Origin: a virus
Strand: one strand, 5' to 3'
DNA: 64,000 bases
Virus record (IMG/VR): IMGVR_UViG_3300023176_007894
Span: 1-64,000 of that record
Part shown: positions 17,869-32,597 of the stretch, one piece after another
How the letters are laid out: the number at the start of each line of letters is the position of its first letter
Numbering within the stretch: position 1 is the first letter of the stretch
Made by a program: the position numbers and the translations under genes
Notes under the pieces: model-generated
What the model was told of the DNA's origin: nothing
Seen by the model: only the letters and a program-made list of their open reading frames with translations
The model's database searches: none

Positions 17869-17890
17869 TTTTCTTTCTTAATCATAGCTT

Positions 17891-18811: not shown

Positions 18812-19014
18812 TGGAACTATCAATACTTCTTGCTGTGGCATTTATTATTGGCATCATTAAAGCATATTGCGAGCGCGACGATTGATCCAAATACAAAACA
18901 CAAATAGCCAAATACTAAATAAAGAAATTTTTAATACTAAATAAGGCAAATATGGAGAGCAATACAGAATTATTGATTCAACTAGAATAAAAGAAAAGGT
19001 AATTGAAAAAATTA

Positions 19015-19110
19015 TTTTGTGCAATCGGGGCCCCCCCTTAATTGAATAGGTCAACAAATTAGGTGGATATTAGCCTTGACTTTGGGCAGAAAATCTTCAT
19101 AATGGAGTCA
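19015..19110 (+). repeat. Cassette-boundary element copy 1 (G4C7) plus promoter
   Basis: GTGCAATC-GGGG-CCCCCCC...ATAGGTCAA...TTGACT..CATAAT..ATG. Confidence 0.65.
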
Positions 19111-19505
19111 TGATTAAGACAAAGCCTGACGAAAAAAGGTACGAGATTAATTTCAACAAGCCCGTTTTTGTTTACAAGAATCTCCACAAAGACTGTTGGA
19201 GCGTCAAACAAGATGGATTAGTCAAAGCTCACACCACAAGCCTTGCGATGCACAGTTGCACTTTTAAGGTAAGCGAAGCAGGAAGAAAGCGTGTGTTAAA
19301 CGAGCAAAGAAAAAATGTTCACGCAGGAATCCAAGGTTACATTGAGGAGCAAGTTGGTAATTGGATTGATTCGCATCCTACTGCTCGACCTGTAACTTAC
19401 AATCCGTACAAGTATGAGAATTTTGTTGACAAGGACACGGAACAAATGGTAGACTATGCTATTGCCGTGAGACTAGAACCTAAACAAGTATTAGCAGTAT
19501 TATGA
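19110..19505 (+). CDS. Conserved phage hypothetical protein (VYKNLH...GRKRVLNEQRKNVHA)
   Basis: Recognisable widespread phage motif; leaderless promoter. Confidence 0.75.
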   Translation: MIKTKPDEKRYEINFNKPVFVYKNLHKDCWSVKQDGLVKAHTTSLAMHSCTFKVSEAGRKRVLNEQRKNVHAGIQGYIEEQVGNWIDSHPTARPVTYNPYKYENFVDKDTEQMVDYAIAVRLEPKQVLAVL

Positions 19506-19699
19506 ATCAAAGAACAATAGACATCACCCCTACATGGTCAGCAATCATTCGTCCTATGATTGAGGTGCTGAAGAACCCAAAGGCAGATCCCTTCGGAAAG
19601 AAAGAGGTCGAAAAAGAATTGCTTAGACTTGCGAAGATCGTAGACGATCAAAACGAGAAAGCAAGAATGGTAGAACTTGACAAAAAGGCTAGATCATGA
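19502..19699 (+). CDS. Hypothetical protein (IDITPTW motif)
   Basis: Coupled ORF. Confidence 0.6.
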   Translation: MNQRTIDITPTWSAIIRPMIEVLKNPKADPFGKKEVEKELLRLAKIVDDQNEKARMVELDKKARS

Positions 19700-19929
19700 C
19701 ACAAGCACAAATTAGAGAAGAAATTCTGGGCATAGTTAAAAGAGAACTTGCATGGGCAGATCCAATGTCTAGGATATGTCTTGATCAGCACAAAAGGCAT
19801 CCCGAAAAGTTTCCGATTGGTTCAACTTTTGAATCAGCCGAAGAAGTTTTGGATGACATCATTTGTAGCTTGACATTGTTCCAAAAGGAGCTTAGAATTA
19901 AGTCATCTTTTCAATCAACTAACCTCTAA
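19696..19929 (+). CDS. Hypothetical protein
   Basis: Coupled ORF. Confidence 0.6.
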   Translation: MTQAQIREEILGIVKRELAWADPMSRICLDQHKRHPEKFPIGSTFESAEEVLDDIICSLTLFQKELRIKSSFQSTNL

Positions 19930-19942
19930 ACAAAGGAAAATT

Positions 19943-20362
19943 ATGGGACTCGACCAAAATGCTTATTCAGTCGTCCAAGGTGGGCGAAACGATGGAGAAG
20001 AAGAACATCTTAGCGAATGGAGAAAACACAATCGCCTTCAAGGATGGATGCAACAGCTTTGGGAAGACAAGGGAAGACCGAATGCTCCTGAGTCATCAAG
20101 CCCAATGGGAGACTTTAATTGCATTCCGTTGGAACTCGATGAAGAAGACATTATTCGCCTAGAGCAAGACATTCTAGATTGCAATTTACCCGAAACACAT
20201 GGCTTCTTCTTTGGAAGCGATTCTTACTCTTGGACAGATGAAAGCGAAGAACCCTTTCCCGAAGGCGACTATTGGTACAAGGAAACCGATTTGCAATTTG
20301 TCGAAGATGCCAAAAAGTGCCTCAAACAAGGTAAGAAAGTTTTTTACTCTTGTTGGTATTGA
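19943..20362 (+). CDS. Conserved phage protein (MGLD...WRKHN...GFFFG...YxxW)
   Basis: Recognisable phage family pattern; AAGGA SD. Confidence 0.75.
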   Translation: MGLDQNAYSVVQGGRNDGEEEHLSEWRKHNRLQGWMQQLWEDKGRPNAPESSSPMGDFNCIPLELDEEDIIRLEQDILDCNLPETHGFFFGSDSYSWTDESEEPFPEGDYWYKETDLQFVEDAKKCLKQGKKVFYSCWY

Positions 20363-20400
20363 GCCTTGACATTCAAACAGAACCTGCCATACTTAACTAC

Positions 20401-20568
20401 ATGAAAGAATTAATGGAAGAAATCAAAACCCTTCAATCACGATTAAGAAATTGCGGTGGAGGAAAAATCGTAATCACTAGCGGAAAATTTGACATCTCGC
20501 TTGGCAAAGAGCATGAGGAAGATGAGAGTGAGGATGTCGAAATGCTTCGTGCAATATTCAATGCTTAA
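20401..20568 (+). CDS. Hypothetical protein
   Basis: ATG 35 nt after TTGACA(20366). Confidence 0.6.
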   Translation: MKELMEEIKTLQSRLRNCGGGKIVITSGKFDISLGKEHEEDESEDVEMLRAIFNA

Positions 20569-20569
20569 A

Positions 20570-20776
20570 ATGGAAAATCAAACATACATCGATGCGGTTT
20601 GCGAAGGCAAGCCATTAGACAAACCTTCGTTCAATGCGGATCTTGAAGCATGGGAATTGTACTTTGAGGAGTCGGCGACTCCTTGGCATCCCTATGACGA
20701 AAGAGACTTGTTGAGCGTCTTTTTCAACTCTGAACAAGAGGCACTAGATGCCTACAACCACTACAATGCAAACTAA
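20570..20776 (+). CDS. Hypothetical protein
   Basis: ATG directly after the previous stop. Confidence 0.6.
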   Translation: MENQTYIDAVCEGKPLDKPSFNADLEAWELYFEESATPWHPYDERDLLSVFFNSEQEALDAYNHYNAN

Positions 20777-20778
20777 CA

Positions 20779-20940
20779 ATGAATACTAAGGTAGACAAAC
20801 TCAATAAAAAAATTCGTAAAATTGGATTCGAGCTTGCAAGGGCGCAAGCCATGAACATCAAGGCAGAAGATTACTTGTCGAAAAAGATTGCTCACGATTT
20901 GCTCTTGAGCGAACTGTATTCGATAGAGAAAAAAGTTTAA
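20779..20940 (+). CDS. 53-aa hypothetical protein (not in the ORF track)
   Basis: MNTKVDKLNKKIRK...; fills the gap before the tRNA. Confidence 0.5.
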   Translation: MNTKVDKLNKKIRKIGFELARAQAMNIKAEDYLSKKIAHDLLLSELYSIEKKV

Positions 20941-20947
20941 TTACATC

Positions 20948-21023
20948 GGACCCGTAGCTCAGCGGTTAGAGCAGGGCACTCATAATGCCTTGGTCCTCGG
21001 TTCGAATCCGAGCGGGTCCACCA
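20948..21023 (+). tRNA. tRNA with CAT anticodon, most likely tRNA-Ile2 (lysidine type)
   Basis: 76-nt cloverleaf GGACCCG/CGGGTCC-A-CCA, loop CTCATAA, TTCGAAT; C4-G69 and C5-G68 as in Ile2 tRNAs; no initiator features. Confidence 0.9.
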
Positions 21024-21028
21024 AAAAA

Positions 21029-21145
21029 GTTGCACGATTCGCTCAGGGGGGCCCCCCCGCTGCACTATCATACCGGGAAATTGCATAATTTAACAAAATG
21101 AAAAAAGGGGTTGACTTTACCTTATTTTCTGTCATACTATAGGTA
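21029..21145 (+). repeat. Cassette-boundary element copy 2 (G6C7) plus promoter
   Basis: TTGCACGAT...GGGGGGCCCCCCCGC...TTGACT..CATACT..ATG. Confidence 0.75.
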
Positions 21146-21429
21146 TGATTAACAATGAAGAAGCAAGAGCGTCCTCACTTCAAGAGGACATGGAAAGAAA
21201 CCCCGAAATGTACAAGGAGTATGTTGAAGAAGACGATTTGGTCGAGCCTGAAAGAGTTGACCTAGTCAATCAAAGGTACATCATCGTGGACAACAAAAAC
21301 TGTTGGAAGGGTCACGAAGGTCAGCAGATCATTGGAAGCTTTCTTTCTATCGAGGATTCAGTTGCGTGGGCAGAGATCAACCTCGATCATAGCGCCTACA
21401 ATGTCTATCGAGTACAGGTAGTTCATTAA
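21145..21429 (+). CDS. Hypothetical protein
   Basis: Leaderless promoter; similar to 16350-16601. Confidence 0.65.
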   Translation: MINNEEARASSLQEDMERNPEMYKEYVEEDDLVEPERVDLVNQRYIIVDNKNCWKGHEGQQIIGSFLSIEDSVAWAEINLDHSAYNVYRVQVVH

Positions 21430-21521
21430 AAAAAAACTTAATTGCAAAAAAAAGCTTGACGGATCGCAAAAAATTTAGTAAAATTAATCCATCAAAGAAA
21501 AACTCTAACCTCTAAAAAATC

Positions 21522-22274
21522 ATGAATAACAGAATCAATCTCAAAGTTTGCTCAACCAAAGAATCTTCTTTCGACGAAGTTAAAGCCGTTGCTACTCCTC
21601 AAGCGACAGAGTCTTGGCAACCGATTAGCCATGCTTTCCTTGTTGATCGTGTGCAAAATCAAATGCAGGACAACGGATGGGAAATCGTTGACACCTACCA
21701 CTCCCTACACCGCTTTGGACAACGCTACTTTGGCTTGTTCCATGTCAAGAACACGGGCGTTGACAACGATGAGCGAGGCACGATTGTGGGCTTGCGAAAC
21801 TCTCACGACAAATGCTTTCCTGCAGGTTTGTGCATGGGTAATGCACCTTTTGTCTGCTCGAATCTCATTTTCACCAATGAAGTTGTTCTTGCAAGGCGAC
21901 ACACCAAAAACATTCTTTCCGATTTGTCGCAAGTTATTGCTCGCACTCTTGGCAAGATGACTGAAACATGGGCTAGTGACGAGCAACGCATTCAAGCTTA
22001 CAAAGAATACGAGCTTGGCAACGAACAAGCTCATGACCTCGTCATCCGTGCCTACCAAAACGGAGCAATCAGCAAGGCAAAGATTGCAGATGTTGTGGAG
22101 CAATGGCATAAGCCCGAACATGACGATTTTTCGCCAAGAACCATGCACTCCTTGTACAACGGATTCACGCATATTCTCAAAGGTGGAATCACCGCATTGC
22201 CTAATCGCTCTCTCGCACTTCACGGAGTTCTTGATTCCGAAGTTGGACTAAGTTCTAAACTTGAAGTCGCTTAA
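21522..22274 (+). CDS. DUF932-family protein
   Basis: GLRNSHDK..AGL..G...FVCSN....RRHT pattern. Confidence 0.8.
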   Translation: MNNRINLKVCSTKESSFDEVKAVATPQATESWQPISHAFLVDRVQNQMQDNGWEIVDTYHSLHRFGQRYFGLFHVKNTGVDNDERGTIVGLRNSHDKCFPAGLCMGNAPFVCSNLIFTNEVVLARRHTKNILSDLSQVIARTLGKMTETWASDEQRIQAYKEYELGNEQAHDLVIRAYQNGAISKAKIADVVEQWHKPEHDDFSPRTMHSLYNGFTHILKGGITALPNRSLALHGVLDSEVGLSSKLEVA

Positions 22275-22318
22275 CCTAACCTAAAAACACACTAACCAAA
22301 ATCAAAACACATCTAACT

Positions 22319-22549
22319 ATGAAAAAGCAAAAGTACCTTCAAAATGTAGTCGATAGCCTCAAGGGACGATTCGTTTCCCTTCTTGTCAAAAACGGAGAGC
22401 AACGCAAGGTGTTCTCGGCAAAGGTCACTAGCGTGACTCCTCGCCATGTAATGTTCACCGATACTAACGGAGGAAATCGTCGAGTAAATCGTCGTCATGT
22501 CCTTCGGGCAACTTGCGCCAACAAGACTTTTAAGAGGTCGGTGAGTTAA
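22319..22549 (+). CDS. Small basic beta-rich hypothetical protein
   Basis: ORF followed by a terminator. Confidence 0.65.
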   Translation: MKKQKYLQNVVDSLKGRFVSLLVKNGEQRKVFSAKVTSVTPRHVMFTDTNGGNRRVNRRHVLRATCANKTFKRSVS

Positions 22550-22580
22550 ATCAAATAGCTCCAAATAGGGAGCCAAATAC

Positions 22581-22608
22581 AAAGCCTCTCTTCGGAGAGG
22601 CTTTTTTT
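22581..22608 (+). terminator. Rho-independent terminator with UUCG tetraloop
   Basis: AAAGCCTCTC-TTCG-GAGAGGCTTT-TTTT. Confidence 0.9.
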
Positions 22609-22639
22609 GCGAAAGGCTATTGACTTATCCTGCATTTTT

Positions 22640-22739
22640 TGTGACCGATCCGGGCGGGGGCCCCCCGCAGTACCATCGTATAAAAAATTAGTTGAATATT
22701 AGCCTTGACTTTAGTTCTTGATCTGCCATACTTAGACTA
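22640..22739 (+). repeat. Cassette-boundary element copy 3 (G5C6) plus promoter
   Basis: TGACCGATCCGGGC-GGGGG-CCCCCC-GCAGTACCATCG...AGTTGAA...TTGACT; matches the reverse complement of copies 5-11. Confidence 0.8.
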
Positions 22740-22882
22740 TGAATGCAAAAGAAAGAATGAAAGAATGGAAAAAGCTTCCGCCGAACACAATTTCATGGGA
22801 GACTTTTAAAAGGTTGCTTGGACAATTCGGGCCGGAAAAAGGTATTGAAAAAGCAAAAAAGATGCTTGACAAAAAGGGCTAA
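22739..22882 (+). CDS. 47-aa hypothetical protein (not in the ORF track)
   Basis: MNAKERMKEWKKLPP...; leaderless promoter. Confidence 0.6.
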   Translation: MNAKERMKEWKKLPPNTISWETFKRLLGQFGPEKGIEKAKKMLDKKG

Positions 22883-22900
22883 TTCAACATAATTAAAGAC

Positions 22901-23617
22901 ATGATTAAGACAACGCTACTCACTCAAGGAAACGCAAAGATAGTCAAAGGCGAAAAGCTTGGCTATACAACCAAAGGAATTCATCTCGCTCCAGCTCAAC
23001 TTTCGGGCTATGAGGTTTGCCAATGGCGAAGCAAAGGTTGCACTGCTTCTTGCCTCAATACTGCGGGTCGTGGTCAAATGGACTCAATCCAAAAGTCTCG
23101 GATTGCAAAGACAAAATTGTTTTTTACTCAGCGAATGGATTTCCTTGTGAAGCTATCGAAAGAAATTTCTAGTTCAATTAAGACATCAGCAAAGAAGGGT
23201 ATGAAGTCAGTCTTCAGGCTTAACCTTACAAGTGACATTGCTTGGGAAAACATCATCAATGAAGATGGCGTGACTATCTTTGAGAAGCATGGCAAAACTC
23301 AATTTTACGATTACACAAAATCATTTGAACGCATGAAGCAATTCATTCATGGAGAGTTGCCAAGTAATTACCATTTGACTTTTAGTCGCTCCGAACACAA
23401 TGACAAGTTGTGTAAGTTGGTTCTTGCTATGGGTGGCAATGTGGCGGTAGTCTTTCGCAATCAGTTGCCCGAAACTTGGCAAGGTTATGAAGTCATCAAT
23501 GGCGATGAAAATGATTTGCGTTTTCTTGACAGGCAAGGTGTTGTCGTCGGTCTTATTGAAAAAGGGATGGCAAAGAAAGACTCAACGGGATTTGTCCAAG
23601 AAGGAATTAACTCTTGA
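22901..23617 (+). CDS. Gp88-like phage protein
   Basis: VCQWRSKGCTASCLNTAGRG, RLNLTSDI, QFYDYTK, NYHLTFSRSE, GDENDLRFLD. Confidence 0.75.
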   Translation: MIKTTLLTQGNAKIVKGEKLGYTTKGIHLAPAQLSGYEVCQWRSKGCTASCLNTAGRGQMDSIQKSRIAKTKLFFTQRMDFLVKLSKEISSSIKTSAKKGMKSVFRLNLTSDIAWENIINEDGVTIFEKHGKTQFYDYTKSFERMKQFIHGELPSNYHLTFSRSEHNDKLCKLVLAMGGNVAVVFRNQLPETWQGYEVINGDENDLRFLDRQGVVVGLIEKGMAKKDSTGFVQEGINS

Positions 23618-23648
23618 CAAAACAGAAAACTTAACCTAGTATTAAAGC

Positions 23649-23816
23649 ATGACAGATACCTATTACGATTCCGCAGAAGATGTAACGATCACGCAAGAAA
23701 GAGCGTTTGAAGAACTCGCAAAACATGGTTGCCAAGATTATGAGCAATTCATTTTGGACATGGGCGACAAAGAAGAGTATGATGCACAAAAAGTGTTGCA
23801 ATGGCTAGGCTACTAA
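23649..23816 (+). CDS. 55-aa acidic hypothetical protein (not in the ORF track)
   Basis: ATG 35 nt after TTGACA(23614). Confidence 0.65.
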   Translation: MTDTYYDSAEDVTITQERAFEELAKHGCQDYEQFILDMGDKEEYDAQKVLQWLGY

Positions 23817-23921
23817 AAAGTTGACCGATTCCCCAAGGGGGGGCCCCGCAGTTGAATGGTGCAAAAAATTTGTTGAATTGTTTGCTTGACCTTGGGCCGG
23901 TTTCTGTCATACTTAATTACA
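23817..23921 (+). repeat. Cassette-boundary element copy 4 (G7C4) plus promoter
   Basis: AAAGTTGACCGAT..GGGGGGGCCCCGCAG..GTGCAAAAAA..GTTGAA..TTGACC..CATACT..ATG. Confidence 0.8.
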
Positions 23922-24121
23922 TGAAAGAAACAGTAAAAATCCTAATGTCCCGCGATGGCTTGACTAAAGCTGAGGCGGTCAAACAAGTAAAAGATTTTTT
24001 TCTTGGAATGCAAGCCGACATCTCTGAAGGTGGTGATCCTTGGGAATGGGAAAACGAGTTTGTTCAAGAGTTTGGCTTGGAGCCTGACTACTTTGAGGAT
24101 TTTCTTTTCAGCCTTTGCTGA
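23921..24121 (+). CDS. Conserved phage hypothetical protein (LMSRDG...FGLEPDY)
   Basis: ATG 35 nt after TTGACC(23886). Confidence 0.7.
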   Translation: MKETVKILMSRDGLTKAEAVKQVKDFFLGMQADISEGGDPWEWENEFVQEFGLEPDYFEDFLFSLC

Positions 24122-24165
24122 TTAATTTCCTTGACAAAACACAAAAAAATTCATAGAATTACAGC

Positions 24166-24561
24166 ATGATTAAAGACGAGACTAAACTAAAAGATTTCAA
24201 CGATTTAGACTTCAAGCAACATCCTTGCTTCGCCGAAGGCACGGCAGTTCAAGCAAAATTAACTTTCGGGCATCGTGACAAAGACAATCAAGATCAATTT
24301 ACGATCTCGGTTGTTCAAAACAAAGGAGATGGTTCGGGCTTGTATGGTCATGAAGATGACGGCACTTACGAAGTTGCAATGTGGTTTCAAGATCGAGACT
24401 CCATGCTTCCTTTGTCTGTATCTGACGATGTTCTTGGTTCGCAAACTCCTGCTGACATCACCCGTCTTATGCACACCGCACAGCTCAATGATTTCGCTTG
24501 GGTCACTCTTCTTCAGAATGCAAGAGATGATTTCAGAAAAGATTTAGGGCTTGACAGTTAA
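24166..24561 (+). CDS. Hypothetical phage protein (ISVV...LYG..YEVA)
   Basis: ATG 35 nt after TTGACA(24131). Confidence 0.7.
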   Translation: MIKDETKLKDFNDLDFKQHPCFAEGTAVQAKLTFGHRDKDNQDQFTISVVQNKGDGSGLYGHEDDGTYEVAMWFQDRDSMLPLSVSDDVLGSQTPADITRLMHTAQLNDFAWVTLLQNARDDFRKDLGLDS

Positions 24562-24585
24562 CGAAAAATTTCATACAATTATGGC

Positions 24586-24690
24586 ATGATTAAGATCAGG
24601 AAAACCATTCTCTTCACCAAGTCAAGACCTCACAAGGTCAAAGCAAAGGTGATTCACAGAAAGCTCAAACACAAGGAGAAATTGCAGTAA
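24586..24690 (+). CDS. 34-aa highly basic peptide (not in the ORF track)
   Basis: MIKIRKTILFTKSRPHKVKAKVIHRKLKHKEKLQ; ATG 35 nt after TTGACA(24551). Confidence 0.65.
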   Translation: MIKIRKTILFTKSRPHKVKAKVIHRKLKHKEKLQ

Positions 24691-24938
24691 TGTACATCAA
24701 AGACAATCAAGAAAATTCAGAAGAAACGCCTTTAAATGCTGAAGAGGCTACGAAAATTTGCATGGGAATGATTTACGAGATACTGATTTCTCCTGCAATG
24801 GAAAAGAATTTAATTAATTCCGAGGATTACGAAGCACTTCAACAAGTCGGGGAAACCCTTCGCTTTGTCGCAAAAAAAGCCTTGATTTTCGAGAAGATGA
24901 AAGAGCAAGACAATGGCATAACTTTTGGTCGCAACTAA
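24690..24938 (+). CDS. Hypothetical protein
   Basis: Coupled ORF. Confidence 0.6.
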   Translation: MYIKDNQENSEETPLNAEEATKICMGMIYEILISPAMEKNLINSEDYEALQQVGETLRFVAKKALIFEKMKEQDNGITFGRN

Positions 24939-25129
24939 TGAAACCATTGCTAACGAAATCCAAAGACGGATGTTTCGTAATCGTTTTTGCCGAAAAGAAA
25001 ACTCATGTCAACGATCTGTTCATCTCTCAAGCGACATTACAGAAAAACATCAAAGAAAAAACATTCATCAAGCATGACAAACTCACTTACAATGAACGAC
25101 CTCTCTACATTTACCATGAAGACTGTTAA
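24938..25129 (+). CDS. Hypothetical protein
   Basis: Coupled ORF. Confidence 0.55.
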   Translation: MKPLLTKSKDGCFVIVFAEKKTHVNDLFISQATLQKNIKEKTFIKHDKLTYNERPLYIYHEDC

Positions 25130-25381
25130 TGGCTACAAAGTTTTAAAGAACGGAAAACCCTGTGGAATTACCGGCTCTCTCGAATATGTCGTGGATGAAA
25201 TTCGCAAACTCGAATCAAATCTTGATCGATCAAGAGAGCATTCGCCTTTCACGATTGTCCTTCGCAAATAGAAAGCTAATCCAAAAAAATAATTTTTAAA
25301 ATAGGATCGAGCAAATAGAAATAGATGCACAAATAAATACATCAAATATTTTGTAGAATTGGTCATTGACTTATTGTACAA

Positions 25382-25445
25382 TTTTATTGCACAATCCTAC
25401 TGGGGGGGCCCCCCCGGCCCGCATCGGTCAACTTTTAAGTTGAAA
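25382..25445 (-). repeat. Cassette-boundary element copy 5 (G7C7), promoterless, at the convergence point
   Basis: TTGCACAATCCTACT-G7-C7-GGCCCGCATCGGTCAACT. Confidence 0.85.
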
Positions 25446-25448
25446 AGT

Positions 25449-25514
25449 TTAGCCTAGGATCATGCAGTAGAATACTGCAAGCCAAGGCAAGAATAGGAGA
25501 ATGTCCCAAGTCAT
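25449..25514 (-). CDS. 21-aa hydrophobic micro-peptide, copy A
   Basis: MTWDILLFLPWLAVFYCMILG; identical copy at 29869-29934; ATGA-coupled. Confidence 0.55.
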   Translation of the reverse strand: MTWDILLFLPWLAVFYCMILG

Positions 25515-25579
25515 GCTTCTAGGTATCCTTTAATTATTCCAATGAAGAAAGCCACGGCAAGAAGGATTGCAAACTCCAT
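25511..25579 (-). CDS. 22-aa hydrophobic micro-peptide
   Basis: MEFAILLAVAFFIGIIKGYLEA; paralog at 28200-28268. Confidence 0.55.
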   Translation of the reverse strand: MEFAILLAVAFFIGIIKGYLEA

Positions 25580-25876
25580 TTATTCGCCAAAGATTTCACG
25601 CATCAATGGGCTTACTGCCTTCATGTCACGCAAGTTTTCGTCAGAGTCAAAATCCTCTTCCTCATCTGCACGATTGTCTTGACTTTCAAGTTGAGAGATT
25701 TCGTCCTCGACATCCGACTTTTGGGCATCGAGCAATCCGTGTTGAACGATTAGTTCTTCAGCAAGGATTTCAGCTTTCAAGTCTTCAATGAAGGAAGACA
25801 TTGCAGGGGAAACCTGCATGGCGTTTGAACTGTTCGCCATTTGGCGAATTATTTCGATTCTTTCTGATTGAGTCAT
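25580..25876 (-). CDS. Acidic hypothetical protein, paralog of 28270-28563
   Basis: SERIxII...VSP...GLL.A.K.DVEDE...MREIFGE shared. Confidence 0.75.
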   Translation of the reverse strand: MTQSERIEIIRQMANSSNAMQVSPAMSSFIEDLKAEILAEELIVQHGLLDAQKSDVEDEISQLESQDNRADEEEDFDSDENLRDMKAVSPLMREIFGE

Positions 25877-25890
25877 AGCTTTAATTATGG

Positions 25891-26064
25891 TTATTTTTCG
25901 CTGATTGTCAAGTTTAATTCAGTTTGATTTTTTTCAGCCCGATCAAGATCCTCAAGCTCGATGCTTGCGTTGATCACGACTTGCCTTGCTCTAATGTGCC
26001 CAAGGTCTGCGATGGGTTGCATGATTCGGATGAGTTCGGTTAGGATTTTTTTTCTTTCATTCAT
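25891..26064 (-). CDS. Hypothetical protein
   Basis: ORF with a promoter-like upstream region. Confidence 0.55.
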   Translation of the reverse strand: MNERKKILTELIRIMQPIADLGHIRARQVVINASIELEDLDRAEKNQTELNLTISEK

Positions 26065-26107
26065 GGCTTTAATCATAATGATTTCAATGGCAATTGCAAG
26101 CTTTTTT

Positions 26108-26650
26108 TTAAGAAAGGAAGTGATTCAAGGCACTTTCCAATTTTCCTTTGTTTAGGTTATCCTTGCGATCTCTTGGGACAAAGTTCGACCAATGATTTGA
26201 GCCTCCGCTTTGTTTTTCTCGAATGTGATCCATGTTCCAAGCATTTTTGACATCTCGATTTGTCCAATTGTCCCAACTCATTCCATCCTCGAATTGAGCT
26301 TCGCACAAAATTCTGTATTGATCAATCGAGCAACCGAGGGTAGATTTTCTGATTCCCAAGCATCCGCACGCAATCATGAAGGCTTTTCTCTTTTCTCCGC
26401 TGACCATGTCAAAGTATGGATCATGAGCAATTTGGTTTCTGATTTTTTTGTATTTAGATTGAATGTTTTGCTTTTCTTGTTTCTTGTGTTCGATCAGTTC
26501 TTCGAGCCTTTTGATAGTGCTATCAAGTTGGTCGATTTGATTTTTTTCTACTACTTTCAGCATGTCTCCAAGATCAAGATCTGTGCGAGAGTCTTTAACA
26601 TTCTTTTTGGTGAAAATTTTATTCCAAGCTTTCGAGAGTTTATATTTCAT
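26108..26650 (-). CDS. HNH-type endonuclease-like protein
   Basis: LGCSI...FEDGMSWDN...WNMDHI...NHWSNFVP...DNLNKG. Confidence 0.65.
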   Translation of the reverse strand: MKYKLSKAWNKIFTKKNVKDSRTDLDLGDMLKVVEKNQIDQLDSTIKRLEELIEHKKQEKQNIQSKYKKIRNQIAHDPYFDMVSGEKRKAFMIACGCLGIRKSTLGCSIDQYRILCEAQFEDGMSWDNWTNRDVKNAWNMDHIREKQSGGSNHWSNFVPRDRKDNLNKGKLESALNHFLS

Positions 26651-26720
26651 TTTTTTCCTTCGTTTTAGCAATTTATAATTAACAAGAATATATTATACAA
26701 AGAGAATTGCAAGCTTTTTT

Positions 26721-26888
26721 TTAAGAAAAAAACGGATGCTTGCGAACCGAAGAAAGAGGAACAGCAACACGCTTTTGCGAGCGATAGATGCGAGCGAGAA
26801 CGAAAGTCTCTGCTCCGTCTTTGTGAAAGCCTTCGACCTGAAGGATTCTTTTTTTGTAATCAATGAGAACATCTTTAATCTTAATCAT
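26721..26888 (-). CDS. Small SH3/KOW-like hypothetical protein
   Basis: True start MIKIKD directly after the element promoter. Confidence 0.65.
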   Translation of the reverse strand: MIKIKDVLIDYKKRILQVEGFHKDGAETFVLARIYRSQKRVAVPLSSVRKHPFFS

Positions 26889-26995
26889 ACCTACAAGGTA
26901 ACACAGAAACCCCGAAAAGTCAAGAAAAACTTTCAACTATTTTTTTGCACGATCCTATTGCGGGGGGGCCCCCCCGAGGGCCGGTTGTCAAGCTT
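26886..26995 (-). repeat. Cassette-boundary element copy 6 (G7C7) plus promoter
   Basis: Minus strand GATCGTGCAA..ATAGTTGAAAGTTTTTC-TTGACT-N17-TACCTT-GTAGGT-ATG. Confidence 0.9.
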
Positions 26996-27011
26996 TATTT
27001 TTCATTATTTT

Positions 27012-27725
27012 TCATTGCAACTTTGCTTTTTCCTCGCGAAGGCGGTGGATTCTATTGTGAATCGATTTTATTTTTAGGTATTGGTTAAGTGCTCGTTTAG
27101 GGTGTCTTTCTATCCTGCGATGGGCTTGAGGCATCTTGCGATTAAAATGCTTTAGATTTAGTTGATCGAGTAATTCCTTGTTTTCTTTCAAGGCTTTGCG
27201 TTCAATTCGCAATGCTTTTTGAATTGAGGGTCTAATTGGATCTTCTGAATCAAGAGATTTCAAACGATCCTCGTACCTTTTTTTGCGAATTTCCCTGTTC
27301 CAAACTTTTTCAGCACAAGCAATGCGGTCAATCGTTTGTTGTTCTAGCATGTCATACAATTCTTGATCTATTCCTGTTTCTGATGGGTATGGAGTTCCGC
27401 GTAGATCATCTTCTTTGGCATGATGCAATGCAATGTCGATTTTCCAATTATTTTTTAATGCTTCTTTATTGTTCTTTTTGAAAGCCCTTAATGTATTGAT
27501 GTACCTTTGTTCCTGTCTGTGGAAGTTAGTGAATTCCTTTACCTTGATCAAATTACTTGCGCAAAGAAAACCTGAAATGTATACTGCACCATCAGAATTT
27601 GATCCCCAATGATAGGAATTTTCATAGTTTTGTAGCCTAGCAATTGGATTAATTGAAGAACCAGCTTTCAAGTGCAAAGTTCTGAGGTTAGTGTCGAGGT
27701 TCATTGCAACATATACTTTTTTCAT
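27012..27725 (-). CDS. GIY-YIG/T5orf172-like N-terminal domain protein
   Basis: VYVA...LKAGSSINPIARLQNY, then a helical C-terminus. Confidence 0.45.
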   Translation of the reverse strand: MKKVYVAMNLDTNLRTLHLKAGSSINPIARLQNYENSYHWGSNSDGAVYISGFLCASNLIKVKEFTNFHRQEQRYINTLRAFKKNNKEALKNNWKIDIALHHAKEDDLRGTPYPSETGIDQELYDMLEQQTIDRIACAEKVWNREIRKKRYEDRLKSLDSEDPIRPSIQKALRIERKALKENKELLDQLNLKHFNRKMPQAHRRIERHPKRALNQYLKIKSIHNRIHRLREEKAKLQ

Positions 27726-27825
27726 TCTATACCTTTGTTAGTGAGTTAAAAGGACTTTTTCCTTATCTTTGATAATACATAGTATGACAAATTTTTTCGT
27801 AAAGTCAACTGTTTTTTTAAAAAAA

Positions 27826-27907
27826 ATGAAAAAAACTTTCGCCTATTTTATTGCACGATCCTGCCGCGGGGGCCCCCTAAGCCTGCAAGCCATTGACCGT
27901 CAAAGGC
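27826..27907 (-). repeat. Cassette-boundary element copy 7 (G5C5)
   Basis: CTATTTTATTGCACGATCCTGCCGC-G5-C5. Confidence 0.85.
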
Positions 27908-28096
27908 TTACCAAACGAAGCCTCCTACAGCGCCCGTCCTGCCAACGGCAAGAGGGTGAAGCTCCAAGTCGGTGACGGGCACCGACCAGATGCGCGAGGA
28001 GTAACCCCGTGCACGGACGACTGCGACGCCGTCGGTTAAGGACTCAACCACGCAGGAGAATCCGTTGAAGAGAACGATATCATTAATCTTAATCAT
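27908..28096 (-). CDS. Small SH3/KOW-like protein, copy A
   Basis: Near-identical to 30965-31153. Confidence 0.7.
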   Translation of the reverse strand: MIKINDIVLFNGFSCVVESLTDGVAVVRARGYSSRIWSVPVTDLELHPLAVGRTGAVGGFVW

Positions 28097-28200
28097 ACCT
28101 ACAAGGTACCACAGAAACCCCGAAAAGTCAAGAAAAACTTTCAACTATTTTATTGCACGATCCTTTTGCGGGGGGGCCCCGAGGGCCGGCTGTCAAGCTT
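28094..28200 (-). repeat. Cassette-boundary element copy 8 (G7C4) plus promoter
   Basis: Same ~90-bp block as copies 6, 9, 10 and 11. Confidence 0.9.
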
Positions 28201-28268
28201 TATTCTTCAAAATTTGCTTTAACCATTCCAATGAAGAAGGCCACGACAAGAAGGATTGCAAGCTCCAT
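28200..28268 (-). CDS. 22-aa hydrophobic micro-peptide
   Basis: MELAILLVVAFFIGMVKANFEE; paralog of 25511-25579. Confidence 0.55.
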   Translation of the reverse strand: MELAILLVVAFFIGMVKANFEE

Positions 28269-28269
28269 T

Positions 28270-28563
28270 TTATTCGCCAAAGATTTCACGCATCCGAGAA
28301 CTCAACAAGTCCATTGATTTGAGCTCTTCGTCCTCGTCAAAGTTTTCTTTTTGACTTGCCCTGTCTTCGAGGCAATCAAGATTTTGAAACTCATCTTCGA
28401 CATCTTGCTTGTTCGCTTGAAGCAAGCCGTACTCTGCCACAAGGTCTTGAGAAAGCTTTTCTTCCTTGAGTTCTTGAATGAGTAAAGACAAAGAAGGGCT
28501 AACTTTTTCGGTTGGATTTTTCGAGGCTTCTTCGATTATTTTGATTCTTTCTGATTTTAACAT
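28270..28563 (-). CDS. Acidic hypothetical protein, paralog of 25580-25876
   Basis: TTGACA-N17-CATAAT-N6-ATG start (MLKSER). Confidence 0.75.
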   Translation of the reverse strand: MLKSERIKIIEEASKNPTEKVSPSLSLLIQELKEEKLSQDLVAEYGLLQANKQDVEDEFQNLDCLEDRASQKENFDEDEELKSMDLLSSRMREIFGE

Positions 28564-28602
28564 GATTTGATTATGGTTGAATTTTTTTGATTTGTCAAGC
28601 AA

Positions 28603-29226
28603 TTAAACAATGGATTCGAGTTTTCTGAGGTTAACGCAAAGGGTGATTTGCCTTTTTTCTTTTTCCATTCTGCACTTGCTTGCACTCCATCGGTCAGGCA
28701 AGGAATTATTAGCCAACCGAAAGGCAGATCCTGCATTGAGTTTATTTACCGACTTGACTTGCTCTTTTGTTTCTTCAAGTGTGTTTGAATAGTCTTTGAC
28801 AAAGCTAGCGGTTTCAAGCCAAATTTTTTCCATTTTTTCAATTTGAACATTCATGCTCAATTTGTAGAATTTTACATCAACAAGCTTGTCAGGCGTTCCA
28901 TCATAAAAGCCGACTACAAGGATGAGGTCTTTTTTGATTGCAAGCAATTTTCTTTCGACATCGCCAAGAATGATGTCTTTTCTCTTGATCTCGTAGTATT
29001 TTACTTCCCAATCACCAATTAGACTTTCGGGAACATTGCCTTGCTCAACGATTTCTTTGCGGAAGTCAACCGCATCTTTGTGTTGATCATGTACAGGGAA
29101 TTTAAAGTAATCTTCGAGATATTTCTCAAAGGGCTTTCCATGCTTTCCCATTTGTTTATTGTGGGCGTTAACATTACGAAGGTGTTTTTCGATTTGTGAG
29201 TAGGATTTTTCTTCAATTATTTTCAT
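28603..29226 (-). CDS. Putative PD-(D/E)xK restriction-endonuclease-like protein
   Basis: HGKPFE...DAVD...WEVK...IILGD pattern. Confidence 0.45.
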   Translation of the reverse strand: MKIIEEKSYSQIEKHLRNVNAHNKQMGKHGKPFEKYLEDYFKFPVHDQHKDAVDFRKEIVEQGNVPESLIGDWEVKYYEIKRKDIILGDVERKLLAIKKDLILVVGFYDGTPDKLVDVKFYKLSMNVQIEKMEKIWLETASFVKDYSNTLEETKEQVKSVNKLNAGSAFRLANNSLPDRWSASKCRMEKEKRQITLCVNLRKLESIV

Positions 29227-29281
29227 AGCAATTTTGTTTTTATTATTTTAGATTAATTTATACGAGCCTGAAAGTCAAGCT

Positions 29282-29509
29282 TTATTCTTCTTTGTTGAGT
29301 TGAAGGGCAAGGGCTTTGTCCACTTGCTCAACCATTTCTTCCATCCATATCAAGATGTTTCCTGCATGAACTTGTGCAAACTCGCCGTCTTCTGCAAGGC
29401 GATCTTTTGCAAGGTTTGCGATAGCTTCGGCTTTTGAGCCAATGTCGAAAGTCGCCTCAAGAGTTTTGAAGTTTTTGGCGAGCATGATGTCTTTGAATTT
29501 TGTTTTCAT
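29282..29509 (-). CDS. Hypothetical protein
   Basis: ATG (MKTKFKD) after a TTGCAA..TATACT promoter. Confidence 0.6.
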   Translation of the reverse strand: MKTKFKDIMLAKNFKTLEATFDIGSKAEAIANLAKDRLAEDGEFAQVHAGNILIWMEEMVEQVDKALALQLNKEE

Positions 29510-29560
29510 AAGTATAAGGTAAACTAGTTTCGGGTTAATTGCAAGCAAAAAATGATTTAT

Positions 29561-29752
29561 TTACGCAATCCATTCGACAAGCTCAAACTTGCGAGGAAGG
29601 TTAAACTTAGCAAGATCACGATTGAGATTCTCAATTGAATCGTGGTGTTCGCATTTGAGAAGTTGATTCTCTGCGATGATGTCGCCCGTCTTGCGGTCAA
29701 CGATATTAACTTTGGCGATGAAGCCGTTTACTTGTTTATCATTCTTAATCAT
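29561..29752 (-). CDS. Hypothetical protein
   Basis: First gene after element copy 9. Confidence 0.65.
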   Translation of the reverse strand: MIKNDKQVNGFIAKVNIVDRKTGDIIAENQLLKCEHHDSIENLNRDLAKFNLPRKFELVEWIA

Positions 29753-29865
29753 ACCTACAAGGTATCACAAAAACCCCGAAAAGTCAAGAAAAACTTTCAA
29801 CTATTTTCTTGCACGATCCTACTGCGGGGGGGCCCCGCCCGCATCGGTCAACTTTTAAGTTGAAA
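29750..29865 (-). repeat. Cassette-boundary element copy 9 (G7C4) plus promoter
   Basis: Same block; right flank identical to that of copy 5. Confidence 0.9.
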
Positions 29866-29868
29866 AGT

Positions 29869-29934
29869 TTAGCCTAGGATCATGCAGTAGAATACTGCAA
29901 GCCAAGGCAAGAATAGGAGAATGTCCCAAGTCAT
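29869..29934 (-). CDS. 21-aa hydrophobic micro-peptide, copy B
   Basis: Identical to 25449-25514. Confidence 0.55.
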   Translation of the reverse strand: MTWDILLFLPWLAVFYCMILG

Positions 29935-30107
29935 GATTTGATTAGCTTAAGCGATTGCTCGAGTTGTTGAATTTTCGCATCGACATCGACTGCAACCGAG
30001 GCGATTTGTTGAGCCTCGGACATTCTGCCAAGGCGCAAGGCGTTAGTTCTTTGATTTGTTAAAGCTTGCAAGACTGCAATTAGTTGATTGATTTTTTCTT
30101 GAATCAT
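29931..30107 (-). CDS. 58-aa coiled-coil protein (not in the ORF track)
   Basis: MIQEKINQLIAVLQAL...; ATGA-coupled on both sides. Confidence 0.55.
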   Translation of the reverse strand: MIQEKINQLIAVLQALTNQRTNALRLGRMSEAQQIASVAVDVDAKIQQLEQSLKLIKS

Positions 30108-30259
30108 TTTGAGATTACGATGGGTTTTCTGTTTTTTGCACGAAGCCTGTCGGCAATTTGTAAAGCGTGAGCCATGCGTTTAGAGTTGTCCACTACGACG
30201 CCATCCATGAGAATGTTCCACCATTGTGGAAAGTTTGCGTTTCTTTCAATTCTAATCAT
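30104..30259 (-). CDS. 51-aa hypothetical protein (not in the ORF track)
   Basis: MIRIERNANFPQWWNI...; TTGACT..TAGAAT promoter. Confidence 0.6.
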   Translation of the reverse strand: MIRIERNANFPQWWNILMDGVVVDNSKRMAHALQIADRLRAKNRKPIVISK

Positions 30260-30289
30260 AGTTTTATTCTATTTGTTTTGGAGCAAAAG

Positions 30290-30490
30290 TCAAGCATTTT
30301 GTTCGCGAATTTTGAAAGCCATGTCGTGAAGACGAGAACGCGAACCGCCAAGCTCGCGAAAGTTGCGAAGTTCGCGGGCGACTTCAAAGCGAGCTTTCCA
30401 AGCTTGCTTGAATTCAGGAGCATCAACGGAGAGAGAGTTGACAAGGCGGTTAAGCTCTTCGAATTTTTGATTAAGTTCTTGTTTAGTCAT
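30290..30490 (-). CDS. Hypothetical protein
   Basis: ORF in operon. Confidence 0.6.
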   Translation of the reverse strand: MTKQELNQKFEELNRLVNSLSVDAPEFKQAWKARFEVARELRNFRELGGSRSRLHDMAFKIREQNA

Positions 30491-30527
30491 AACTTTTTTA
30501 ATTTAAGGGTTTAGAGAGTAAAAGGTT

Positions 30528-30686
30528 TCAGTCGATAAGACCGTCTTGGTGATCCAAGCGAAGTAGCTCATCTTGGAGTTGCCCGATTTCGGAGCGGATC
30601 GCTACCTTGTCGGCGATAGTTAACTCGCAATCAACGAGCGTTTCACGGAGAACGGAGATTTCGATTTCAATTTCTTCTTTGGTCAT
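30528..30686 (-). CDS. 52-aa protein, paralog of 32030-32161 (not in the ORF track)
   Basis: MTKEEIEIEISVLRETLVDCELTIA... Confidence 0.65.
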   Translation of the reverse strand: MTKEEIEIEISVLRETLVDCELTIADKVAIRSEIGQLQDELLRLDHQDGLID

Positions 30687-30847
30687 AACTTTTAACTTTA
30701 GGATTTTAACTTTCTTATCTTAACTTTATATGTATAACTTAGCACACAATGTGCGAAATGTCAAATTTTTTTTTCACTTTTTTTCACTTTTTTCATCTTA
30801 GCGATGACAAACTTGCAAAGGATTTTTTCTCTTTCGGTTAACTTAAT

Positions 30848-30964
30848 CATGTCTATAACATAGCACAGAAAACCCGAAAAGTCAAGAAAAACTTTCAACT
30901 ATTTTATTGCACAATCCTACTGCGGGGGGGCCCCCAAGCCTGCAAGCCATTGACTGTCAAAGGC
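30848..30964 (-). repeat. Cassette-boundary element copy 10 (G7C5) plus promoter
   Basis: Same block; right flank as in copy 7. Confidence 0.9.
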
Positions 30965-31153
30965 CTACCAAACGAAGCCTCCTACAGCGCCCGTCCTGCC
31001 AACGGCAAGAGGGTGAAGCTCCAAGTCGGTGACGGGCACCGACCAAACCCTCGAGGAGTAGCCCCGAGCACGGACGACTGCGACGCCGTCGGTTAAGGAT
31101 TCAACCACGCAGGAGAATCCACTGAAGAGAACGATATCATTAATCTTAATCAT
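30965..31153 (-). CDS. Small SH3/KOW-like protein, copy B
   Basis: Near-identical to 27908-28096. Confidence 0.7.
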   Translation of the reverse strand: MIKINDIVLFSGFSCVVESLTDGVAVVRARGYSSRVWSVPVTDLELHPLAVGRTGAVGGFVW

Positions 31154-31264
31154 ACCTACAAGGTACCACAGAAACCCCGAAAAGTCAAGAAAAACTTTCA
31201 ACTATTTTATTGCACGATCCTGCCGCGGGGGGCCCCCGGCCCGCATCGGTCAACTTTTCAGTTG
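31151..31264 (-). repeat. Cassette-boundary element copy 11 (G6C5) plus promoter
   Basis: Same block; right flank as in copies 5 and 9. Confidence 0.9.
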
Positions 31265-31265
31265 A

Positions 31266-31574
31266 TTAGAGCACAAGAGGATCAGGCAATGAATTAGGCA
31301 CAGCGAACCAATCGGATGAGTCAATCACTTGCCCGTTCAGTACAGGCTCGAAGTTGACTTGATGCACTCCGGCATTGACTATTCCGTTTACGCGTTCGCG
31401 CGTGGTTGGTGTGTTCCAACCTGCAAGCGACCAACGCACAAGGCCGTCCGCGTCACGCTTCACAATGGCGTTGCCATGTAGCCAAACGGTCTCGCCGTCC
31501 GTGCTAGTGTTGCCAATCGCTTTTGATTCGCGGCGTTCAAATGCTTGTTTTATTTGTTCTGTTACTTTTCTCAT
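31266..31574 (-). CDS. Conserved phage hypothetical protein (LHGNAI...GWNTPTTRERVN)
   Basis: Recognisable phage motif; promoter upstream. Confidence 0.7.
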   Translation of the reverse strand: MRKVTEQIKQAFERRESKAIGNTSTDGETVWLHGNAIVKRDADGLVRWSLAGWNTPTTRERVNGIVNAGVHQVNFEPVLNGQVIDSSDWFAVPNSLPDPLVL

Positions 31575-31613
31575 TTTATGCAATTTTAGCTTAAAAGAAT
31601 TGACTTGTCAACC

Positions 31614-31802
31614 TTAAAGGTGGACAATCTCGACAGACTCGGTCAAAGCCTTTTCATCTGCAAGTATCTTTGCAAGATGAGGCGAGCGACCGAAGCGATC
31701 AATGCCCGCAGAGCGAACACGTGGAAACTGTTGAGACTCGCTGTCCCAAATTTTAACGGAGAAATGGGTTGACCATTTTTTGATGAAGATTTTTTTGATC
31801 AT
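31614..31802 (-). CDS. Hypothetical protein
   Basis: ORF in operon. Confidence 0.6.
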   Translation of the reverse strand: MIKKIFIKKWSTHFSVKIWDSESQQFPRVRSAGIDRFGRSPHLAKILADEKALTESVEIVHL

Positions 31803-31823
31803 AGCTGTATGAGTTAAGGTTGA

Positions 31824-32003
31824 TTAGTTAAACAAAGGATGAAGTTTGACATCCTCGAAACGGATACCGACTTCTCGGTTAGTCCTGTAAGGACGAACTT
31901 TGGCGATCTTGCCAAGCGATTCATGCTCGACTGCCTCGATGAATTGAAAGACTTTTTTGTCTCGTGAGATTAGGACATCGCCCTTTTTGAATTTGGTTTT
32001 CAT
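31824..32003 (-). CDS. 59-aa SH3/KOW-like protein (not in the ORF track)
   Basis: MKTKFKKGDVLI...KVRPYRTNREVGIRFEDVKLHPLFN; resembles 26721-26888. Confidence 0.65.
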   Translation of the reverse strand: MKTKFKKGDVLISRDKKVFQFIEAVEHESLGKIAKVRPYRTNREVGIRFEDVKLHPLFN

Positions 32004-32029
32004 AATTTTTAAGAGTTTGAGGTTAAAGG

Positions 32030-32161
32030 TTAGGAAGCCAACTTGGCTTCGAGTTGGGAAATTTCTTCCCGAAGAGCTACACGCTCTGCGATGGTGAGGA
32101 CGCAGTCCTCAAGGGTTTCCCGAAGGATTGAGATTTCGATTTCGATTTGTTCTTTGTTCAT
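32030..32161 (-). CDS. 43-aa protein, paralog of 30528-30686 (not in the ORF track)
   Basis: MNKEQIEIEISILRETLEDCVLTIA... Confidence 0.65.
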   Translation of the reverse strand: MNKEQIEIEISILRETLEDCVLTIAERVALREEISQLEAKLAS

Positions 32162-32232
32162 AATTTTTAGCAATTTGAGATTAAAACTTTCTTAACTTTA
32201 TATATACAAGATAGCACAGGTTTGGTCAAAAG

Positions 32233-32352
32233 TCAAATTTTTTTTTTCACTTTTTTTTCGATTATTTTAGTGAGAGTAGAAAGAACATTCTTCTTGCCTT
32301 TGGCTTTCATTCGACGGGCGAGCTTTTGGAGTTCATTCTTTCTCTTAATCAT
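32233..32352 (-). CDS. 39-aa basic peptide (not in the ORF track)
   Basis: MIKRKNELQKLARRMKAKGKK...; first gene after element copy 12. Confidence 0.5.
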   Translation of the reverse strand: MIKRKNELQKLARRMKAKGKKNVLSTLTKIIEKKVKKKI

Positions 32353-32435
32353 ATATACAAGATAGCACAAGAACCTCGAAAAGTCAAGAAAAACTTTCAA
32401 CTATTTTCTTGCACGATCCTACCGGAGGGGGTGGG
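32350..32435 (-). repeat. Cassette-boundary element copy 12 (half site, G-run only) plus promoter
   Basis: GAAAAGTCAAGAAAAACTTTCAACTATTTTCTTGCACGATCCTACCGGAGGGGG; no C-run. Confidence 0.8.
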
Positions 32436-32597
32436 TTGACCTATCCCATTAAATGAATTCATTTTTCTTTTACAGCTTTTCTAGATCGCGGGGGGTCCCT
32501 TTTTTCAATATCAAAACACTTTTACATTATATAATATATTTGTTCGACTCAAAAAAAATCGGCACATATTTGTGTATATATACAAATATATCAAATT

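Follow-up and report, generated by a model that had tools for sequence, protein, structure and literature searches.

What is a G-run/C-run palindrome (GGGGCCCC) doing between the small genes of a viral genome, again and again, directly in front of a promoter? The window considered here (the whole stretch of 64,000 nucleotides that was analyzed, positions 1 to 64,000 of the IMG/VR virus record IMGVR_UViG_3300023176_007894) has a GC content of ~37% and is phage DNA, encoding a T4-type terminase N-domain, PhoH, a class I ribonucleotide reductase, an ATP-dependent ligase, rIIA/rIIB-like genes and a Clp-like ATPase. An original prediction, made from the letters alone, had described a gene-cassette array delimited by repeats and had offered two explanations for it, namely an undescribed system of cassette shuffling and expression or the binding site of a dimeric phage protein. 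The array itself, which lies in an early ORFan region, is real and well defined, and gene content does change at the repeated modules between relatives; it consists of hairpin-promoter modules of the promoter-early stem-loop (PeSL) type, in a new phage lineage. We consider it likely that the hairpin serves as transcript end or insulator and is coupled to a strong leaderless promoter, and that the shuffling is a by-product of general recombination between modules.

The core word GGGGCCCC occurs 11 times in the window, always within 19027-31236; over dinucleotide-preserving shuffles of the sequence the mean is 0.06 and the maximum 1. All 11 cores lie between open reading frames (ORFs), as had been noted, and the positions and run lengths first given for them are exact (G4C7, G6C7, G5C6, G7C4, G7C7, G7C7, G5C5, G7C4, G7C4, G7C5 and G6C5, from left to right). 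A covariance model of the element, trained on 25 copies from three genomes, detected the 11 copies plus a half site (32390-32482) and no other significant match in the window; the 8 matches in G002, a complete relative of 184 kb, all fell within 103.7-114.1 kb. Scanning an element model over the window and its relatives, a check proposed at the outset, thus confined the matches to 19-32.5 kb of the window and to a 10-kb stretch of G002. The half site predicted at ~32427 was found by the model, but it is a conserved sequence of the divergent region that is also present in relatives without cores. We also considered the possibility, raised with the prediction, that the copies are assembly artefacts. 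They are not, because an independent Logan DNA contig matches 20992-25446 with zero differences and because two IMG/VR relatives, each assembled separately from another sample, have cores at the orthologous positions. No Rfam family matched the element.

Oriented by their promoters, the modules share a conserved part in which the G/C core is followed by GCAGTAGG-ATYGTGCAA-(T/A)AAAAT-AGTTGAA-AGTTTTTC and then by the promoter, TTGACT-N17 with a TG-extended -10 (CATA(A/C)T or TG-n-TACCTT), 6-7 nt and an ATG. The proximal arm is separated from the -35 by an A/T-rich tract, (T/A)AAAATAGTTGAAAGTTTTTC, and the core is ~44 bp upstream of the -35. A sigma70-like promoter of the form TTGAC(T/C)-N16/17 was found at 9/11 cores. 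The claim that one arm of the element runs into TTGAC(T/A)-N16/17-(-10)-N6/7-ATG therefore stands for nine copies, but the copy at 25402 has no promoter and that at 27868 has a different one (27808) with a long leader. Since the ATG is only 6-7 nt past the -10, the transcript should start at the ATG itself, and the mRNAs are predicted to be leaderless; no Shine-Dalgarno sequence was present at the module start codons, and the first few codons (MIK...) belong to the repeat.

The distal side is far less conserved than the proximal side and mirrors the proximal arm only loosely (for example, TTGACCGAT versus TTGCACGAT). The inverted arms first described, TTGCACGAT ... ATCG(G/T)(T/G)CAA with outer TCAACT/AGTTGA, were recovered in the best copies, 29826 and 31227, around a spacer of 25 bp, as were the three variants of the distal flank (25402/29826/31227; 26962/28170; 27868/30924). 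The arms contain -35-like words (TTGACC, TTGCAC) and were considered as promoters themselves, but neither strand has a -10 suitably spaced from them. Together the G and C runs usually span 10-11 nt, with a boundary that shifts (G4C7, G5C6, G7C4). Run-length variants occur between orthologous copies and between sequencing runs, where slippage and homopolymer assembly error are indistinguishable; phase variation by run length was set aside, given the distance of the core from the -35 and the absence of any sign that the distal arm affects the promoter.

Core modules fill true spacers of 100-200 bp, starting where the preceding gene stops or, at 21024, where the tRNA-Met ends in CCA. Each unit has its own promoter and contains 1-7 genes. 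The coreless early promoters (20366, 22866, 23614, 24131, 24551 and others) overlap the end of the preceding gene. As the modules stand at unit ends and in true spacers, the cores mark boundaries of multi-gene units, the expected place for a terminator or insulator. The features of the array are as follows (window coordinates).

18991-19112, + strand: module 1, rightward; core G4C7 at 19027-19037, -35 TTGACT at 19076, -10 CATAAT, leaderless ATG at 19110; 51.9 bits.
21024-21147, + strand: module 2, rightward, directly after the CCA of tRNA-Met (20948-23); core G6C7 at 21046-21058, -35 at 21111, ATG at 21145; 55.2 bits.
~22583-22609: canonical terminator (hairpin + T7) just upstream of module 3.
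22621-22741, + strand: module 3, rightward; core G5C6 at 22656-22666, -35 at 22705, ATG at 22739; 67.7 bits.
23814-23923, + strand: module 4, rightward; core G7C4 at 23837-23847, -35 TTGACC at 23886, ATG at 23921; the TAA of the upstream gene (23814-16) leads into the distal arm; 72 bits.
25367-25451, - strand: copy 5, hairpin only, without promoter, where rightward and leftward blocks converge; G7C7 at 25402-25415; 77.5 bits.
26886-27011, - strand: module 6, leftward; core G7C7 at 26962-26975, -35 at 26923, leaderless ATG at 26888 (55-aa ORFan).
27723-27913, - strand: module 7, leftward; core G5C5 at 27868-27877, different promoter (27808), long leader, 237-aa gene with ATG at 27725, a gene not in relative G001.
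28094-28216, - strand: module 8, leftward; core G7C4 at 28170-28180, -35 at 28131, ATG at 28096 (62-aa GC-rich ORFan, copy 1).
29750-29872, - strand: module 9, leftward, the best copy, with all three palindrome tiers; core G7C4 at 29826-29836, -35 at 29787, ATG at 29752; -28.2 kcal/mol; 94 bits.
30848-30971, - strand: module 10, leftward; core G7C5 at 30924-30935, -35 at 30885, ATG at 30850.
31151-31273, - strand: module 11, leftward; core G6C5 at 31227-31237, -35 at 31188, ATG at 31153 (62-aa GC-rich ORFan, copy 2).
32350-32482, - strand: module 12, proximal arm and promoter (-35 at 32387, ATG at 32352) where a G-rich run (32426-32435) replaces the palindrome; kept in all relatives including the coreless ones; 40.4 bits.
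27836-28164, - strand: duplicated unit of 329 bp, 95-100% identical to 30892-31221; only 5 nt separate its right edge from the core at 28170, and its left edge is within module 7.
25453-25518 and 29873-29938, - strand: duplicated pair of tiny ORFs.
25513-25581 and 28202-28270: second duplicated pair of tiny ORFs.

Among the genes behind these modules, the two copies of the 62-aa ORFan (27908-28096 and 30965-31153, - strand) are 95% identical and visibly far richer in G+C than the surrounding DNA. Both at the N-terminal and at the C-terminal end they resemble the 55-aa product encoded at 26721-26888, a hint that a small family of paralogues lies behind the leftward modules. A weakly HNH-endonuclease-like gene (26108-26671, - strand; Pfam E=0.002, below the cut-off) is flanked on both sides by directly repeated promoter sequence of 40 bp (26085-26124 and 26698-26737) and is absent from the 92% relative. 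The tiny hydrophobic ORFs (~21-23 aa; coding status uncertain) are duplicated beside the distal arms of several modules.

Is such an anatomy known? In the published PeSLs of phages RB49 and phi1, a sigma70-like promoter with an AT-rich tract upstream is joined to a polyG-then-polyC stem-loop (PMC2839356, PMC4122927), a stem that Comeau et al. (2014) termed "GN-loop-CN" in RB49 (PMC4122927). Arbiol et al. (2010) reported that they are concentrated in hyperplastic ORFan regions, that they flank RB49/phi1 indels, that reporter assays revealed both terminator and promoter activity, and that mini-circles could be detected by inverse polymerase chain reaction (PMC2839356); PeSLs also occur in PST/T4 and nt-1/KVP40 (PMC2839356, PMC4122927). 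The array shares with them the near-consensus sigma70-like early promoter, the AT-rich tract before the -35 and the G-run/C-run stem-loop ("generally involving GGGG...CCCC"), the hyperplastic ORFan setting with motif-flanked indels and replacements between close relatives, and the combination of no known recombinase with a suspected role for phage general recombination. The element has PeSL anatomy and behavior, and therefore the statement that it matches neither PeSLs nor integrons was wrong where the RB49/phi1 PeSLs are concerned (PMC2839356, PMC4122927).

There are also differences. The RB49 hairpin mostly overlaps the -35 and -10 or falls in the gap between them, whereas here it lies well upstream of the -35. 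The G run passes directly into the C run, without further loop bases, and additional imperfect arms lie outside; PeSLs carry a Shine-Dalgarno sequence at their 3' end, whereas leaderless mRNAs are predicted here. Finally, this phage is not T4-like as judged by capsid and portal markers, despite its rIIA/rIIB-like genes and T4-type terminase N-domain: neither Gp23 (PF07068) nor Portal_T4 (PF07230) was found in the complete relative G002, the Gp23 negative being weak, as its control matched nothing anywhere. In the literature searched, no PeSLs were found outside T4-like phages. Unverified leads are PeSL-like arrays in several other phage groups, one of them joined at the palindrome GCCCGGGC.

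The likeness to other repeat systems is more partial. Like integron attC arrays, the locus lines up small genes in tandem with imperfect palindromic repeats between them, and its cassette content varies among relatives. However, no IntI-type tyrosine recombinase was found in the complete relative (PF00589 absent from G002), every unit of 1-7 genes has its own promoter in place of a single Pc, and the repeat includes the promoter and first codons, with joints at several repeat positions. With repetitive extragenic palindromic (REP) sequences and bacterial interspersed mosaic elements (BIMEs), it shares GC-rich imperfect palindromes in spacers at gene 3' ends and possible stabilization of mRNA 3' ends, but it lacks a Y1/RAYT gene (PF01797 absent from G002) and a conserved GTAG head, is in fixed linkage to a promoter, and resides in a phage rather than a chromosome. 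The terminal-redundancy module of SPO1 and the pre-early/early regions of T5 likewise contain many short early operons with their own strong host-type promoters that encode small proteins of unknown function. To our knowledge, these host-takeover modules have not been described with one conserved G/C palindrome joined to the promoter, and we know of no documentation in them of population-level shuffling of the kind seen in this array.

How might the modules work? Each would stand at the boundary of two early transcription units and combine a hairpin, a UP-like A/T-rich tract and a strong sigma70-like promoter. The putative hairpin takes the form GGGG-(3 G/C)-CCCC, to which GC...GC is often added and, in the best copies, a pair of imperfect outer arms as well. 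Such a hairpin would end, attenuate or 3'-protect the upstream transcript and shield the next promoter from read-through. From this arrangement we infer promoter activity and terminator or attenuator activity. With ~100 bp of near-identical sequence every 0.3-2 kb, the array would also offer a substrate for unequal and inter-phage exchange, through which the phage's general recombination (RecA/UvsX-like) may cause duplications, losses and swaps of entire units of expressed genes. Shuffling would in that case follow from the repetition of regulatory DNA, with no need of a dedicated recombinase.

The hairpin that is conserved is small. The shifting G/C boundary within a total of 10-11 nt fits a 4-bp stem with a free 3-nt loop, and RNAfold draws just this structure, with GGGG paired to CCCC. 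RNAalifold, run on the 25 copies, kept a single helix, a 3-bp G/C stem present in 23-25/25 copies. A longer, three-tier palindrome (TCAACT/AGTTGA, TTGNNCGAT/ATCGNNCAA and the core) folds well only with the first distal variant, in the copies at 29826 and 31227 (-28 to -30 kcal/mol); there the outer arms pair, and the hairpin is followed by GTTTTTC and then the -35. We dropped the long hairpin as a conserved structure because its pairing over the 25 copies (67.4%) was no better than in column shuffles (68.2%) and because these copies contained no excess of compensatory changes and no covariation for the long arms. Cruciform extrusion is disfavored by a palindrome center of pure G/C and was judged unlikely for this element.

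The same data bear on whether the core and arms are read as double-stranded DNA, as an operator by which a phage or host DNA-binding protein switches a subset of early promoters. Arbiol et al. themselves raised GGGG...CCCC as a possible protein target (PMC2839356). The two-fold symmetry of the consensus is real, with 67% of cells paired, against 44-51% once the partner columns are slid out of register; the proximal arm ATYGTGCAA-N6-AGTTGAA is conserved above the genome average at a fixed distance from the -35, even in the 70-78% relative; and the lack of compensatory change, together with constant AC/CA mismatches in the arms, is what a sequence-read site would display. However, the distal arm comes in three unrelated variants, the proximal arm has no partner in coreless relatives, and the geometry, with ~38 bp between the arm centers and the palindrome centered ~85 bp upstream of the start, would not readily suit a simple dimer. 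Unrelated hairpins replace the core in sister lineages, and no candidate binding protein was identified. We therefore regard an operator as unlikely. The dimeric-protein site of the original prediction gains no support from the missing covariation, the constant central mismatches and the partnerless proximal arm of coreless relatives, though protein binding of some kind keeps a low probability.

A set of 32 related loci was collected from IMG/VR with a DNA-pattern scan and a DUF932-protein scan. G001 (18 kb) is 92-94% identical to the window, and G002 (184 kb, CheckV 100%) is 70-78% identical and carries the element at orthologous sites. Core copy number varies by relative (11, 9-10, 7 and 5). 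Most other relatives, with DUF932 proteins 85-93% identical, contain zero G/C cores, and the 93%-complete G003 gave no model match. Coreless relatives retain the proximal ATYGTGCAA-N6-AGTTGAAAG and the promoter in places, and at several orthologous spacers they carry other GC hairpins (for example, a TAGGGC/GCCCTA stem or stems containing CCTAGG). Between L010 (7 cores) and L015 (none), the flanking genes are ~90% identical and homology breaks at every core. The hairpin type is thus swapped between lineages. A GC hairpin of another type recurs at ~4/7 orthologous sites in sister lineages, which favors a structural role over recognition of the word GGGGCCCC.

Intergenic DNA of the sister lineages also contains another module, in which the arms are CAACGAGTTA and CCTAGG recurs in the GC hairpins (loci L012-L024 and L026-L030; for instance L015 16109-16194 and L020 ~11065-11210), and L031 carries a hybrid of CAACGAGTTA, then GGGCCAGGGCCC, then ATTGTGCAA. 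In G001 (locus L006, reverse-complement 6334-6621), a 288-bp ORF-free stretch with a tRNA-like GTTCGAATC T-loop and a possible acceptor stem replaces a 66-aa gene behind the core orthologous to that at 23837; G001's 66-aa gene sits behind the previous core.

Presence in some lineages and absence from relatives that are ~90% identical, seen as a 50-140-bp presence/absence block between homologous genes, together with a varying copy number, could also mean that the core and arms are a small selfish palindromic element (REP-like or similar to a miniature inverted-repeat transposable element) spread in spacers with no regulatory role. Such an origin is hard to credit, and we give it very little weight. 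Neither a Y1/RAYT transposase nor target-site duplications were seen, the orientation relative to the adjacent promoter is constant and the position is always at unit boundaries. Moreover, absence is usually replacement by another hairpin module and not an empty site, and orthologous copies have been kept between genomes that are only 70-78% identical.

Where does gene content change? The window and G001 align as seven colinear blocks separated by 6-7 insertions, deletions or replacements, all within 22.7-31.2 kb, with no indels or replacements in the flanking 5 kb and 4.3 kb. The boundaries lie in promoter modules in 10/11 cases, 6 of them in core modules, which make up ~15% of the region (binomial p ~0.002, a hand estimate). 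They are located as follows.

-10/ATG of modules 3 and 4: one gene has moved between cores, with its -10 along.
24130 and 29546: -35 of coreless promoters.
26115/26704: the 40-bp promoter repeat pair around the HNH gene.
26974, 27822-77 and 30939: at or beside cores.
31140: ATG end of module 11.

Contigs of an estuary sample provided joints from the population.

26969>28177: core-to-core deletion.
30838>31142: loss of a 303-bp unit.
29523>30289 and 29530>29785: promoter-to-promoter deletions.
19112>19499 and 31998>32157: start-to-start deletions.
28170 and 31227: cores with a different distal flank in variants.

Joints within modules are thus observed, and the proposal that crossovers occur in the G/C core holds for some of them only; others are at the -10/ATG, in the T-run before the -35 or at coreless promoters. 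Comparing breakpoints with cores, a check suggested early on, accordingly gave some at the core and as many at coreless promoters.

Could the palindrome nevertheless be the preferred crossover or cleavage site of a dedicated or structure-specific enzyme, such as the HNH protein of the array or the ERCC4-type nuclease encoded in the window at 41842-42759? The distal flanks V1/V3 and the proximal spacers CCTACTGC/CCTGCCGC (ACT/GCC) occur in all four combinations, which requires exchange or short-patch conversion across the 11-14-bp core. Joints at or within 5 nt of a core include 26974, 30939, 26969>28177, 28181>, a loose end at 31236 and the right edge of the duplicated unit, and the L010/L015 homology breaks point the same way. 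However, at least as many joints are found at coreless promoters, at the -10/ATG or in the T-run before the -35; the core is where module homology simply ends, a caution for any count of joints there, and short-patch gene conversion yields the same four combinations. As a control, coreless lineages at 92-97% identity are broken into as many blocks as the window/G001 pair, so the G/C core is not needed for plasticity.

Nor was an enzyme of the expected kind found. No tyrosine recombinase was seen in the window, and tyrosine (PF00589), serine (PF00239) and Y1 (PF01797) recombinases were not found in the complete relative G002, in a search for which control genomes matched for all three families (14/14 genomes for PF00589). 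The original observation that no recombinase is visible in the window thus extends to a complete relative. G002 does encode a RecA/UvsX-like protein (E=1.4e-17). We consider a targeted joint quite improbable. A variant in which the G/C palindrome and the sister CCTAGG-type hairpins are lineage-specific recombination joints of a phage structure- or site-specific nuclease, so that exchange has evolved to be targeted and the type of joint switches with the enzyme, is a slender prospect. The array does not reveal a new recombination system: the undescribed cassette-shuffling system first put forward is not supported, given coreless sisters that are equally mosaic and a complete relative with a RecA/UvsX homologue in which no tyrosine, serine or Y1 recombinase was found; general recombination is the probable pathway.

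Several observations weigh against modules that pair a hairpin terminator or insulator with a leaderless promoter. Most copies, unlike those at 29826 and 31227 when their outer arms pair, have no U-tract directly after the stem in the sense direction and are not canonical intrinsic terminators, and a terminator scan flagged none of the hairpin copies. The hairpin of module 3 is redundant, as a canonical terminator is located 45 bp upstream. At 2-3 orthologous sites a coreless relative has no comparable hairpin. The intergenic location of the joints proves no mechanism either, because in part only recombinants with intergenic joints survive. RNA contigs span the cores at 21046, 22656 and 23837 and elsewhere end where DNA contigs end, at repeats; with possible DNA carry-over, they are uninformative on termination.

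Near-identical sequence for window 18500-33000 was present in at least 13 salt-marsh metagenome runs, plus estuary and freshwater runs, and salt-marsh metatranscriptome runs contained up to 75% of the sampled words of this region. Among INPHARED phages, there was no match to the array by megablast or to a neighboring 558-aa protein by tblastn. The array genes are ORFans, 10 array proteins being without a PHROG match. Upstream of the array, the Rfam manA RNA motif (RF01745) was matched at 17658-17869 (+ strand; 64.4 bits, gathering score 55.2), and a perfect TTGACA-N17-TATAAT promoter at 17560 lies upstream of that match.

These results extend PeSL-type mobile regulatory cassettes beyond the T4-like phages, to an uncultured lineage of ~180-kb salt-marsh and estuary phages with early mRNAs predicted to be leaderless. 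The 32 related loci, in which the hairpin type differs at ~90% identity of the flanking genes, could be used to ask whether the hairpin or plain homology drives the shuffling.

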